Assembly: GCA_964406775.1 (NCBI GenBank)
Contig: CAYOSW010000006.1
Coordinates: forward strand, 1-57,853
Source: an uncultured Gammaproteobacteria bacterium
Lineage (GTDB): Bacteria; Patescibacteriota; Microgenomatia; Daviesbacterales; UBA10151
Reading direction: 5' to 3'
Length of the DNA: 57,853 nt
A program made the translations under genes and the position numbers. Under the pieces are notes generated by a model. That model was not told where the DNA came from. It saw only the letters and a list, made by a program, of their open reading frames with translations, and did not search any database. Below, piece by piece: positions 5,964 through 24,837 of this stretch. Every line of letters begins with the position of its first letter. Position 1 is the stretch's first letter.

Positions 5964-6448
5964 CCTTCAGATTGATAAACAGCCATCACTAAAACACTTG
6001 CCGGGTGCCCTTTTACCTGGTCTATGGAGACCTCCAGTTTCATTCTTTCTTCCTCAAAATTAATGCCCCTGAAAGTACACAAATCTTTAAGAGAATTTTT
6101 AATTCTAAAATGAAGCTCGGACTCAACAGCAACCCGCGTATCCCCTATTAAGTGGTGTTCGACAAACAATCCCCTGCCATCATCAAGCTGATACCAACCT
6201 ACCCCGGCTGCTATAAATTTACCTGCCTCATTGCTCCTCTCCTCTGCCATAACGCAATAAAGTCTGTGTCCCCACTCATTTTCGGGTGTTTCAAAACGCT
6301 CGGATTTATGAACTCTGGAGGCCGGAGGAATTACGGAAGATAATGTAATTAAGTTGTAGTTATATACACCTGCGTCTTTTAGTGCCGCATCGAATGCTGA
6401 AAGCGGTGTCGAAGCCTGACCCACACCTTTAACTATTTTTATATCCAC
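5954..6448 (-). CDS. pdaD: Pyruvoyl-dependent arginine decarboxylase
   Basis: LSAFDAALKDAGVYNYNLITLSSVIP with the Ser-Ser self-cleavage site; IAAGVGW; ASVLVMAVY. Confidence 0.88.
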   Translation of the reverse strand: MDIKIVKGVGQASTPLSAFDAALKDAGVYNYNLITLSSVIPPASRVHKSERFETPENEWGHRLYCVMAEERSNEAGKFIAAGVGWYQLDDGRGLFVEHHLIGDTRVAVESELHFRIKNSLKDLCTFRGINFEEERMKLEVSIDQVKGHPASVLVMAVYQSEGWR

Positions 6449-21396: not shown

Positions 21397-21425
21397 TTGA
21401 CAAATTAAATCCTGTTTGCTAAACT
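21397..21425 (+). promoter_or_regulatory. Sigma70 promoter of the hisG leader
   Basis: TTGACA-17-TAAACT. Confidence 0.85.
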
Positions 21426-21448
21426 TTATTTCTTAACATTTAAATACA

Positions 21449-21635
21449 AGCGCTATTACCGGAGTCACGATCCGGGAGCTGAGGGCCAAATACCCTACGG
21501 AAGTGAAACCGTAAAATATCACAGACGATGTCACAGTAAACTGCGGAGTCGCCACTAAGAGTCTTAAGAAAGAAATTTTTTAGGAAACAAGGATGGGACC
21601 GCGGGAGCGGTCTTTTTTTGACCCTTCCGTTCCTT
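21449..21635 (+). ncRNA. T-box riboswitch, histidine-specific (predicted)
   Basis: Stem III CTTAAGAAA-gaaa-TTTTTTAGG, then AAACAAGGA-TGGGACC-GCG. Antiterminator: AAGGA/TCCTT and GCGGGAG/CTTCCGT around a 7-nt bulge at 21594-21600. CAC codons at 21466-68, 21520-22 and 21532-34. Confidence 0.88.
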
Positions 21636-21680
21636 GATCACTACTTTATTTGTAGTGGCCAAAGAACGGGAGGTTTTTTT
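21623..21680 (+). terminator. Intrinsic terminator mutually exclusive with the T-box antiterminator
   Basis: CCTTCCGTTC...GAACGGGAGG stem followed by a T run; shares CTTCCGTTCCTT with the antiterminator. Confidence 0.9.
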
Positions 21681-21707: not shown

Positions 21708-22628
21708 ATGTTAGATCAGGAACAACGACTAAGATTATCTATACAGAAAGGCAGCAGACTTGGAGAAAAATCCGAGGCGATTCTTCGTGCTGGTGGGTTA
21801 AAATTTCAGGGATTTGACGGAAGTGCAAGGCTTTTTAGCCCCGTATCGGGATTTCCGCTTGATATTTATTTTGACAGACACAACGATATTGCGGAAAACG
21901 TCGAAGCTGGCGTAACCCATTTAGGAATAGTCGGGCAAAACATAGTTACGGAATCGAGAGTGAGAGTTACGCAGCTTATGACTTTAGGATTTGGAAGGTG
22001 CCGCTTAGTAGTTGCAGCTCCCAAAGGAATCACATCAGTCGAACAATTAAGCGGAGGCACGATAGTCACTAGTTATCCAAATTCTGCAGACGACCACTTC
22101 GGTTTGCGAGGAGTCAAAGTAAGCGTGGTAGAGAGGTCAGGATCTATAGAATCATATGTCGGACGCGGATATGACGGGATTGTGGATTTAGTAGATACAG
22201 GGCGAACCCTTAGGGAACAAGGATTGTTCGAGGTAGAAGAAATATACAAATCAGAGGCTGTTTTAGTAGCCGATCCAAATATTAAGAATATAAAGGGCGC
22301 GGAGCGGGTTGTTTTGAGCGTAGTAAGAAGAATATTATCCGCGCAACGAGCTGAGGGCAAAACTTACATAGCCTTGAACGCGCCAACGAAGGCAATCCCA
22401 CAGATTGCTGAGAGAATCCCCGGGGAAACATCCCCAACAGTGAGCCGTTTAAAAAAGAGGGGCTGGTCAGCAGTGTCCGTAGTGGTTCCGAAAGATCAGC
22501 TTGATGAGATCGTTGATGATATTCAAGAATGTGGAGCAGAAAAAATAGTAGAACTTGCAATGCCCAGAATGTTTCCTGATAGAAATGATCCAGAAGTTTT
22601 GGCAATCATGAGTAAGCTTAATAAATAA
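21708..22628 (+). CDS. hisG: ATP phosphoribosyltransferase, long form with C-terminal regulatory domain
   Basis: LSIQKGSRL, LGIVGQN..E, LGFGRCRL, TSYPN, GSIE, IVDLVDTGRTL; HisG_C (LNAP..PTVS.L..W.AV). Confidence 0.93.
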   Translation: MLDQEQRLRLSIQKGSRLGEKSEAILRAGGLKFQGFDGSARLFSPVSGFPLDIYFDRHNDIAENVEAGVTHLGIVGQNIVTESRVRVTQLMTLGFGRCRLVVAAPKGITSVEQLSGGTIVTSYPNSADDHFGLRGVKVSVVERSGSIESYVGRGYDGIVDLVDTGRTLREQGLFEVEEIYKSEAVLVADPNIKNIKGAERVVLSVVRRILSAQRAEGKTYIALNAPTKAIPQIAERIPGETSPTVSRLKKRGWSAVSVVVPKDQLDEIVDDIQECGAEKIVELAMPRMFPDRNDPEVLAIMSKLNK

Positions 22629-22638
22629 TCCGGATTTG

Positions 22639-22667
22639 TTTACTAAAAAAATTAAACTTGTTAAGAT
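22639..22667 (+). promoter_or_regulatory. Internal promoter for hisS
   Basis: TTTACT-17-TAAGAT, then GAGG RBS and ATG. Confidence 0.55.
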
Positions 22668-22678
22668 TGAGGTAATTT

Positions 22679-23896
22679 ATGAAACTGCAAACACCAAAAG
22701 GATTCAGGGATTTTTTGCCGGTAGACGCGCTGAAGCGCGAGGCTATTCTTGAGAAAATCATAGCGGTCTATAAAAAATTCGGTTTTGAACCTCTGGAAAC
22801 GCCTACTCTCGAGTTTGAAGAAACTCTGATGGGTAAATACGGTGAAGAAGAAAAACTTATTTACAGCTTTGAATCCAAGGGCGGTGATAAATTAGCGCTA
22901 AGATACGACCAGACAATTCCTCTTGTGAGAGTCATAGCCCAATGGGGTCCGGTGGGCGCTCAAAAAATAATTCTGCCATTTAAACGCTACCAGGTTCAGA
23001 GCGCTTTCCGCGGAGAAAATACCCAAAAAGGCCGGTACAGGGAATTCCTGCAGTGTGATGCGGACATAGTCGGAGTCTCAACTCCTCTTTGTGATGCGGA
23101 AATTCTGGCGCTGGTTTATGAAATTTATAAAGCTTTAAATATCGAAGTTGTAATAAAGGTCAACGACAGATCATTAATTTCCGAATTTGAACCAAAATAT
23201 TTATCAGCTATCGACAAACTTAACAAAATCGGCACCGAAGGGGTTATTGCCGAACTTTCCGCAAAGGGAATGACCGGGACCGAGGCTGCCCAGACTATGG
23301 AGAAAATTAAACAGCTTAAGCCGTCGGATAATTTACAGGAATCAATTACCACTTTTGAAAAAATGGGTTATCCTGCCGAGGCATTAGAGTTCTCCCCCAC
23401 TTTAGTACGCGGACTGGATTATTACACCGGGATAATACTCGAAGTTGTATTAAAAAACGATCCGAACGGTTCATCCATCGCCGGAGGCGGACGGTACGAT
23501 AAGATTATCGGACAATTCACAGGAATTGATATTCCGGCTGTCGGTTTCTCTATCGGTTTTGACCGGACTTTGGAAATTCTCGAGCAGTACAACCTAATGC
23601 CGAAAGTGCAAACCCCGACTCAGGTTATGGTCGTCTTCAATTCGGCAGATTTTGAGACAAAAGCATTATCGATTCTTGCAAATTTAAGAAATTCAGGGAT
23701 AAACGCCGAGATTTGGCTTGATCCGGCTACAAAACTTGAGAAGCAGCTAAAATACGCCGATGCAAAAGGCATAGGATTTATGGTTATTGTCGGACTTTTG
23801 GAGAACGAACCGGAGAATCAGGTTATATTAAAGAATTTGAGCGAAAGATCCCAGGAAACTGTTGAAATTCCGCAACTGATCGAAAAATTGAAGTGA
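22679..23896 (+). CDS. hisS: Histidine--tRNA ligase
   Basis: PKGFRD, LRYDQT, FRGENTQKGRYREFLQCDAD, RGLDYYTG, GGGRYD, GFDR; C-terminal anticodon-binding domain. Confidence 0.95.
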   Translation: MKLQTPKGFRDFLPVDALKREAILEKIIAVYKKFGFEPLETPTLEFEETLMGKYGEEEKLIYSFESKGGDKLALRYDQTIPLVRVIAQWGPVGAQKIILPFKRYQVQSAFRGENTQKGRYREFLQCDADIVGVSTPLCDAEILALVYEIYKALNIEVVIKVNDRSLISEFEPKYLSAIDKLNKIGTEGVIAELSAKGMTGTEAAQTMEKIKQLKPSDNLQESITTFEKMGYPAEALEFSPTLVRGLDYYTGIILEVVLKNDPNGSSIAGGGRYDKIIGQFTGIDIPAVGFSIGFDRTLEILEQYNLMPKVQTPTQVMVVFNSADFETKALSILANLRNSGINAEIWLDPATKLEKQLKYADAKGIGFMVIVGLLENEPENQVILKNLSERSQETVEIPQLIEKLK

Positions 23897-24837
23897 ATTC
23901 GGAAATTCTAAAAAAACCGGTCTTTTACTTAGCTATAATTGCTGCCCACGCTATTTGGGGCGGGAATTATGTTTTTGCCAAAATTACCCTTGAGGAAATC
24001 CCCGTAATGTCACTCGGTTTTTTGCGTTACGGACTTGCCAGCCTTCTCATAATCCCCTTTCTCTTAAGTCTTGAGGGGAAGGATAAAAAAATCAGAATTG
24101 ATCATCTTCCGAAACTGGTTTTCGGAGCATTGCTTATTGCCTGTATAAACATCGCGTTTTTCTATATGGGTTTAAAACGCACTACGGCTATCGACGCATC
24201 AGTCCTCGAATTATCAATTCCTGTTATCTCGGTAATCGCCGGATGGTGGTTTTTAAAGGAAAAAATCTACTCCGCTAATTTAGTCGGAATTATCATCAGT
24301 CTTCTCGGAGCTTTATCGGTTATCGGAATCCCTCTTTTATTTTTCGGCAACTTCTCAAGCAAGCAACTTTCGGGCAATTTATTAATACTTGCCTCCTCAG
24401 TCTCTTTTGTAATCGGATCGATGATTTTTAAGTCTATGCTTAAAACTTATAAACCCGTCGTTCTTACGGCAGTAACTTTTCTTATTGCCACAGTTGCCTT
24501 TGCACTTCCGGCTTTTATGGAATATCTGCAAAACCCCGGTTGGATTTTAAAGGTTAGTATATTGGGGATTTTCGGTTTGATTTATATTACGGTCCTCTCT
24601 TCAATTTGCGCGTATTTCCTGCTTCTTTGGGGTCTTAATAGGATTCCGTTGTCCCACGCCAATATGATTCAATATCTGGAACCGGCTGTTGCCGCAACCC
24701 TCGCTGTCCCACTTTTGGGCGAGCGTATTTCTTTTTCTTTTATTATCGGCACCTGCCTGATAATTTTAGGCGTATATTGGGGTACGCTAGGTAAAGACGA
24801 ACACCACCATATCCGCCACAAACACCATAGAAGCTAG
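23893..24837 (+). CDS. EamA/DMT-family transporter with His-rich C-terminal tail
   Basis: 10 [19 protein letters not shown]; GTGA overlap with the hisS stop; ends [12 protein letters not shown]. Confidence 0.88.

Follow-up and report, generated by a model that had tools for sequence, protein, structure and literature searches.

A lone hisG under strong purifying selection in a predicted tRNA-His-controlled operon of Candidatus Daviesbacteria

Introduction

T-box(His) regulons of Firmicutes comprise hisS, his operons and histidine transporters, and T-boxes with an ultrashort stem I are known from actinobacterial ileS. HisZ is a paralogue of histidyl-tRNA synthetase (HisRS) that has turned into the regulatory subunit of the short form of HisG, and the EamA/DMT family of carriers includes the S-adenosylmethionine importer of Rickettsia. 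Here we analyse a locus in which hisG, hisS and eamA follow one another at positions 21708-24837 of the contig CAYOSW010000006.1 (57,853 nucleotides; C6, 57.8 kb, in our numbering). This whole contig is called the window below. It belongs to a draft genome of 1.34 Mb in 65 contigs, with a completeness of 100% and a contamination of 1.2%.

The hisG gene of the window has no histidine pathway around it. Among the explanations considered, we lean towards the one in which this lone gene encodes a histidine-inhibitable ATP phosphoribosyltransferase (ATP-PRT) in a tRNA-His-switched operon, whose product serves a starvation function and not histidine synthesis. A literature search for orphan hisG or for histidine in Daviesbacteria or Patescibacteria returned nothing relevant. 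Loci and genomes compared with the window are referred to by our labels (L and G, respectively) where they have to be told apart.

Results

Genes of the locus and absence of the histidine pathway

The first-pass annotation of the window had read three open reading frames (ORFs) as a long-form HisG with a feedback domain, hisS, and a coupled EamA with a His tail. Coordinates and domain matches agree with that reading:

21708-22628, forward strand: hisG, long-form ATP phosphoribosyltransferase of the orphan-type subfamily, 306 amino acids (aa)
22572-22625, forward strand: codons of the HisG C-terminal extension, residues 289-306 (FPDRNDPEVLAIMSKLNK), with a helix predicted at 295-305
22679-23896, forward strand: hisS, histidine-tRNA ligase with anticodon-binding domain, 405 aa, single copy in the genome
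23893-24837, forward strand: eamA, carrier of the DMT/EamA family, 314 aa, whose GTG start overlaps the hisS stop (GTGA)
24799-24834, forward strand: codons of the His-rich tail of EamA, tail pattern G(T/S)LGKxxHHHxxHKHHR

By its model matches HisG is of the long form, regulatory domain included: it scored 135 bits with PF01634, 71 bits with HisG_C (PF08029), 140 bits with TIGR00070 (cut-off 75.75) and 70.6 bits with TIGR03455 (cut-off 40). HisS reached 354 bits with TIGR00442 (cut-off 287) and matched both PF13393 and PF03129, but stayed below the cut-off of the hisZ model (153 bits versus 272); a genome-wide search found one hisS copy.

The rest of the pathway was sought in the whole genome. 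In a six-frame Pfam search, none of the models Histidinol_dh, IGPD, PRA-CH and PRA-PH, each of which matched 14 of 14 control genomes, had a match in any frame. One His_biosynth match (19 bits, contig C16) was rejected as HisA or HisF, the gene being TrpA. This gene for the tryptophan synthase alpha chain (~14441-15181 of C16; L001 1429-2169; 229 bits) indicates that the CPR (candidate phyla radiation) genome studied here holds at least part of another amino-acid pathway. When his proteins of the same genus were used as tblastn queries, the sole match in the genome was a HisH-like fragment on contig C64. We set it aside as a histidine-pathway HisH and take it for a paralogue from a glycan (sugar-modification) pathway, because a gene for an N-acetyl-sugar amidotransferase adjoins it. 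This 1.9-kb contig (C64 1-1931) carries the HisH-like glutamine amidotransferase fragment at its end together with the 461-aa N-acetyl-sugar amidotransferase, a WbuX/WbuY-like pair; the HisF-like partner of such pairs, present in same-genus genomes, was not assembled in this one. A gene for phosphoribosyl pyrophosphate (PRPP) synthetase is present. As read from its sequence, the genome is without hisD, hisB, hisA, hisF, hisI and hisE, and any other histidine-biosynthesis gene is absent genome-wide. What the first pass had noted for the window, namely the lack of further his genes, thus extends to the entire genome, in which no his operon was found by Pfam or by same-genus tblastn.

The same annotation took the DNA for that of a CPR organism, which is borne out by the related loci, these being from Candidatus Daviesbacteria. 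Many Daviesbacteria metagenome-assembled genomes from automated co-assembly (L032, L033, L037, L039 and others) are titled ‘uncultured Gammaproteobacteria bacterium’, apparently a mislabel made on submission.

Purifying selection on hisG

Codon comparisons indicate that the window hisG is under strong purifying selection, as strong as that on hisS or stronger. Compared with the related locus L027, hisG shows a nonsynonymous divergence (dN) of 0.046 at a synonymous divergence (dS) of 1.40, i.e., an omega (dN/dS) of 0.03, and the dN of hisS (0.109) exceeds that of hisG. The closest relatives of the window HisG are five metagenome proteins with 92, 73, 64, 63 and 55% identity and one with 47%; all of them are 306-310 aa long with open frames, and the next relatives stand at ~39% identity. 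Their genes occur as hisG-hisS, as hisG-NYN-hisS, as hisG overlapping a short hisS that is followed by eamA, and as hisG followed by a T-box, a LOG-like gene and hisI.

An orphan-type HisG subfamily marked by a C-terminal helix

The window HisG shares ~37% identity with the operonic HisG of same-genus genomes; the corresponding values for its neighbours are 86% (GMPase), 80% (EamA) and 70% (HisS). In a tree of 147 HisG sequences, the window clade grouped with the other orphan HisGs of Daviesbacteria and 12 representative clusters (SH-aLRT 97), and the operonic type was placed among ordinary long-form HisG. Uniting the orphan and operonic types was rejected in an approximately unbiased (AU) test (p 0.004), for groups that had been named after the tree was seen and with long branches involved. 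A shared derived character supports the separation independently: every orphan-type protein has [IFV]P[DN]xxD..[IV]..[MI]M.K[IL]Y as its C-terminal motif (residues 289-306 of the window protein), which operonic and ordinary HisG, ending at ...PIEKM.., do not have; within it, the structure model contains a helix (295-305) with a pLDDT of ~90. Tree, AU test and tail motif together led us to reject the orphan hisG as a direct derivative of the same-genus operonic hisG. By these sequence characters, the orphan-type proteins of Daviesbacteria make up a subfamily of their own within long-form HisG, marked by a conserved C-terminal helix of 18 residues, a clade apart from both operonic and ordinary HisG. 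The subfamily nearly always adjoins hisS, and has been kept in this position in many genomes without the pathway.

Among 400 genomes sampled across the phylum, ordinary HisG occurred in ~5% and the tail motif in no further genome. One candidate, G255, was dropped: the alignment reached the tail region, but its hisG-hisI pair lacks the motif. This closed 1.2-Mb genome from another Patescibacteria family carries a divergent hisG followed by hisI (L125 6022-7512), without the T-box core of the Daviesbacteria type, and is a further case, beyond Daviesbacteria, of a set limited to the early steps. Four other genera without the his pathway encode a third kind of HisG-like protein, which is short (~255 aa) and has no C-terminal domain (L019 1449-2372, L020 8070-8840, L021 1628-2395 and L026 8919-9689); its gene lies between that of a 450-aa protein and those of class I lysyl-tRNA synthetase, an HD hydrolase and seryl-tRNA synthetase.

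Catalytic and regulatory features of HisG

Of the 34 positions conserved to at least 85% in 116 ordinary HisG, the window clade has retained 30, including QK.GRL, R57, D60, C98, TSYP, SGSxE and the PRPP loop DLVxTGxTL. In the regulatory domain, N224, S242-P243-T244 and G276 are conserved throughout the orphan-type subfamily; N224, S242, T244 and G276 presumably map to the His-site residues of Mycobacterium tuberculosis HisG. The structure model (pLDDT 93.9, pTM 0.88) superimposes on the HisG of M. thermautotrophicus, C. jejuni and M. tuberculosis with TM-scores of 0.84-0.89, the best match being 2VD3 (0.84/0.89). Some orphan-type members have been kept with hisE and/or hisI (L053, L067, L114, L028), and phosphoribosyl-ATP (PR-ATP) and phosphoribosyl-AMP are, to our knowledge, the only substrates of HisE and HisI. 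This company suggests that HisG of the orphan type makes PR-ATP, and catalysis is likely kept in the window clade.

A His T-box leader and a predicted hisG-hisS-eamA operon

Related loci, about 59 in number, were gathered with an EamA alignment. They have a common backbone of orf145-orf248-(GMPase)-variable region-hisS-eamA-rpmE-prfA-prmC, and in the window hisG occupies the variable region. The following elements precede it:

21397-21425, forward strand: promoter-like site TTGACA-17-TAAACT with an extended -10 TG (10/12 matches), the only such site 5' of hisS on this strand
21446-21680, forward strand: predicted His T-box leader (RF00230 match plus conserved core, stem I and terminator)
21459-21475, forward strand: ultrashort stem I of the T-box, with the specifier CAC at 21466-21468 in the loop GUCACGA
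21590-21603, forward strand: T-box core AGGAUGGGACCGCG, whose UGGG fits C73 of the tRNA-His(GUG) of the genome
~21623-21673, with U7 at 21674-21680, forward strand: terminator hairpin of the T-box, with UCCUUG common to terminator and antiterminator

The Rfam model RF00230 matched 21446-21637 with 38.1 bits (E 6e-6), under its gathering score of 93. The leader nevertheless has its specifier in a covarying stem I, a UGGN core that fits the discriminator of the tRNA, and alternative terminator and antiterminator structures. Its core, AGGAUGGGACCGCG, is identical in 28 related loci and always lies 5' of whichever gene comes first in the variable region, or directly 5' of hisS where the relatives are without his genes (L057, L065, L069, L071). 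Stem I is a hairpin of 4-5 bp, and its CAC-bearing loop AGUCACGA is invariant across the related loci. Compensatory changes were seen in 15 of the 29 predicted pairs; the stem I pair 13:29, for instance, is GC in 8, CG in 7 and UA in 5 cases.

The scan called neither promoter-like nor terminator-like sites in the 50-base gap between hisG and hisS (22629-22678), and no terminator-like site from hisG to the end of eamA. Because no promoter or terminator was called between hisG and hisS, hisS and eamA overlap, and the only T-box core motif in the window lies upstream of hisG, we infer that the three genes form one tRNA-His-controlled operon, co-transcribed behind one promoter and one T-box(His) terminator switch. 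This gives no support to the claim, made in the first pass, that hisS has a promoter of its own; the strong promoter and the T-box are situated upstream of hisG. As the sole T-box precedes hisG, and relatives without his genes have it right before hisS, T-box control of the essential hisS would have to pass via hisG.

Other arrangements of the leader occur among the relatives. In L066 (~6270-6300), the T-box terminator is immediately followed by a tRNA-His-like sequence (GGTGGCTGTAGTTCAGTGGTAGAAC), so that a tRNA gene may be under T-box control there. Some loci have two His T-boxes, one before and one after hisG (in L114, at 5 and 1198), the second preceding hisE-hisI or a LOG-like gene; a T-box located after hisG was seen in L028 (1402) and L039 (7725).

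States of the locus among Daviesbacteria

States of the variable region were counted in the 47 loci whose upstream sequence is long enough. A complete operon, hisG-D-C-B-H-(A)-F-I-E, is present in nine of them, three of these from the same genus; hisG without hisD in eight, either alone or with a LOG/SLOG-like gene, an NYN gene, hisI or hisE; hisI only in two; and no his gene in 28. Among the 61 nearest species genomes, HisG was detected in 14, all from the family of the window, and HisD in five; nine of the 14 are without HisD, and none of these nine has HisA or HisF.

Complete his operons lie between the His T-box and hisS in L015 (3227-10531; same-genus genome G001), L032, L034, L040, L047, L055, L059, L063 and L080; one of their products is a HisC of 620 aa that is fused with a HAD-type phosphatase. 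Several Daviesbacteria, hence CPR bacteria, therefore appear able to make histidine. The general statement that CPR lack amino-acid biosynthesis, on which the first pass had relied, needs qualifying, since same-genus genomes hold the complete operon at the same locus. In other genera, decayed operon remnants were found at this site: fragments of hisF and hisI of 30-50 aa in G034 (C13 11377-11759), and a 90-aa HisG fragment, a genuine decayed remnant, in L043 (8457-8729). Two ORFs between T-box and hisS in L033 (same genus), which by eye resembled a degenerate HisG N-terminus, were dropped, having no Pfam match.

Many Daviesbacteria have a HisRS of ~300 aa without the anticodon-binding domain (e.g., L022 6570-7478, L025 6932-7849, L111 1069-2016 and L113 1016-1942). 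In the genomes G036, G023, G020 and G016 nothing but this short protein matches tRNA-synt_His. We dropped the idea of a HisG that makes up for the missing anticodon domain in these relatives, as short HisRS occurs with and without hisG. T-box(His)-controlled units also contain LOG/SLOG-cluster-4 genes (L045 6947-7627, L049 7118-7804, L056 6740-7444, L042 6367-6879, L028 1616-2179) and NYN-domain genes (L046 8492-9016, L030 1269-1571), which adjoin orphan hisG or hisS; tblastn found no homologue of either gene in the window genome.

The EamA carrier

The EamA protein of the window matches PF00892 in two stretches (152 bits), i.e., it has the two EamA repeats of the type with ten transmembrane segments. 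Its substrate class was not indicated by NCBIfam models: the matches (2A78, YedA, cysteine exporter, YddG) were weak and all far under their cut-offs. In all of the approximately 59 Daviesbacteria loci, eamA follows hisS, and the His-rich tail is conserved across genera, in both cases with or without his genes. Membership in the T-box(His) operon and the constant coupling to hisS make a histidine-related substrate plausible, and we give about an even chance to EamA being a carrier for histidine or a histidine-related compound. The first pass had likewise named it a candidate histidine carrier; its place in the operon and next to hisS speaks for that proposal, and the His tail, by contrast, is no evidence of a substrate.

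Discussion

In the explanation towards which we lean, uncharged tRNA-His would cause readthrough at the T-box and thereby the joint production of HisRS, the carrier and HisG. The latter has most likely remained an ATP phosphoribosyltransferase that histidine inhibits (ATP + PRPP -> PR-ATP + PPi) and would be active precisely when histidine is low; its PR-ATP would not be used for histidine synthesis in this organism. The role under selection would then be a function in histidine starvation; candidates are a signal or sink based on PR-ATP/PRPP, and histidine sensing on behalf of HisRS or the carrier. A repurposed HisG or one that senses histidine, as proposed in the first pass, fits the evidence of an intact, selected gene of its own subfamily under T-box(His) control. 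It is possible, though we put this forward more tentatively, that Daviesbacteria have made HisG a stand-alone starvation device, acting either through PR-ATP as signal or sink, or as a sensor that docks on HisRS or the carrier in a reversal of HisZ.

Several points weigh against a catalytic starvation enzyme in a single operon. We know of no use of PR-ATP without HisE and HisI. The sister branch of the window clade, called B-type, keeps 16 of the 34 conserved positions, often with the Asp of the PRPP loop replaced; since it loses most of these positions, the function shared by the orphan type may not need catalysis. Part of the similarity of hisG between genomes may reflect recent exchange and not constraint: between L046 and L056 (G036 and G023, different genera), B-type hisG has a dS of 0.32 and 86% identity, and hisS, eamA and prfA on either side of it are saturated at 68-71%, a combination that suggests recent exchange of orphan hisG between lineages. 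A weak internal promoter of hisS may exist, and the reservations attached above to the AU test belong here as well.

The same decay of the catalytic site leads to a rival explanation, which we judge unlikely, in which HisG, without catalysing a reaction, senses histidine or serves HisRS (or the carrier) as an accessory subunit. It would be a mirror image of HisZ, with the C-terminal helix serving for docking. Regulatory positions do outlast catalytic ones across the subfamily (6 of 8 versus 10 of 26 kept in the B-type), the subfamily has its own conserved helix, and the order hisG-hisS is constant, with the ORFs overlapping by 8 bases in the contexts of P0121 and P0122. Yet the window's own clade retains nearly all catalytic positions, and members accompanied by hisE and hisI imply that PR-ATP is made; moreover, 28 of the 47 informative loci hold hisS-eamA without any hisG, and HisRS hence does not need HisG, most Daviesbacteria managing without it. 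If catalysis is granted, HisG might still serve histidine synthesis, with the pathway completed by unrecognised non-homologous enzymes or by a host or partner that takes or supplies intermediates. CPR bacteria are thought to be attached to hosts and to share metabolites, the catalytic and feedback motifs are both kept, and the predicted induction of hisG by histidine starvation through the T-box would suit such a role. We consider it improbable: seven consecutive steps would need replacing, no his-like gene was found by Pfam or same-genus queries, and the relatives that make histidine use an ordinary full operon with the other type of hisG. PR-ATP, a highly charged nucleotide that is unlikely to be exchanged between cells, would also be a poor metabolite to trade.

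The first-pass suggestion that HisG may be a remnant corresponds to a slowly decaying relic, kept only by its position between the T-box promoter and the essential hisS, where internal deletions alone would be tolerated. The relatives show every stage of reduction, from the full operon through hisG with hisI, hisE with hisG, and hisI alone to nothing, and the genes that survive are the two ends of the operon. A remnant is, however, contradicted by an omega of 0.03 at a dS of ~1.4, by a HisG that is more conserved and evolves more slowly than HisRS, by frames open down to 47% identity, and by a distinct subfamily that has gained a conserved helix; true relics in relatives (G034, L043) are short fragments. 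Nor is hisG required as a spacer, because many relatives have the T-box directly 5' of hisS. We regard a relic as very improbable and largely refuted already. Least credible of all is an artefact of binning or assembly, with the other his genes unassembled or contig C6 foreign to the bin. The genome is a 65-contig draft, and contig C64 ends within the HisH-like gene; but hisG abuts hisS on a 57.8-kb contig exactly at the operon site of the relatives, the identical hisG-hisS junction recurs on the independent contigs L027 and L029, nine related genomes likewise have HisG without HisD or HisA/F, and the completeness and contamination values given above argue the same way.

When a lone enzyme outlives its pathway under strong selection, it is usually dismissed as annotation noise in reduced genomes. 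For the orphan HisG, the sequences make the case for a distinct and long-lived subfamily that has a structural addition and a regulation of its own. With one soluble enzyme, one aminoacyl-tRNA synthetase and one RNA switch, the locus would offer a cheap test system for amino-acid starvation sensing in ultra-small bacteria, which also bears on whether HisG and HisRS-type proteins can pair the other way round from HisZ. At one fixed locus, close Daviesbacteria relatives have histidine biosynthesis, lack it or have it cut to its early steps, and blanket statements on CPR are to be qualified correspondingly. The eamA gene is a candidate for the histidine uptake route of Daviesbacteria.

Comparison with described systems

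Compared with long-form HisG (E. coli 1H3D, C. jejuni 4YB5-7, M. tuberculosis 1NH7/1NH8, M. thermautotrophicus 2VD3), the window protein has the same three-domain fold, aligns over the full length, passes TIGR00070 and TIGR03455 and keeps the catalytic and regulatory motifs. It differs in that the genome lacks hisE, hisI, hisA, hisF, hisH, hisB, hisC and hisD, so that HisG is not the first step of a pathway here, and in its extra C-terminal helix, separate clade, linkage to hisS and predicted T-box control. With the hetero-octamer of HisZ and short HisG (L. lactis 1Z7M, T. maritima 1USY, P. arcticus 5M8H) the locus has in common that HisG is paired genetically, and possibly functionally, with a protein of the HisRS type. 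The window HisG, in contrast, is of the long form with its own regulatory domain, and its partner is the sole, complete, anticodon-binding HisRS and not a paralogue.

The leader resembles the T-box(His) regulons of Firmicutes (RF00230) in its specifier codon, its UGGN core pairing with the 3' end of the tRNA and its mutually exclusive terminator, and in the predicted control of an aminoacyl-tRNA synthetase, a biosynthesis-type gene and a carrier. Unlike these, it has a stem I of 4-5 bp with the codon in the terminal loop, its Rfam score is far under the gathering score (38 versus 93), and its ‘biosynthesis’ gene is without a pathway. The short stem I is comparable to that of the ultrashort-stem-I T-boxes of Actinobacteria (ileS), and is here joined to a transcription terminator. 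Finally, the carrier shares its two EamA repeats and weak model matches with EamA/DMT carriers such as YddG, YdeD/EamA and YedA, and departs from them by falling below every equivalog cut-off, by its conserved His-rich tail of the cytoplasmic type and by its fixed place 3' of hisS in a T-box(His) unit.

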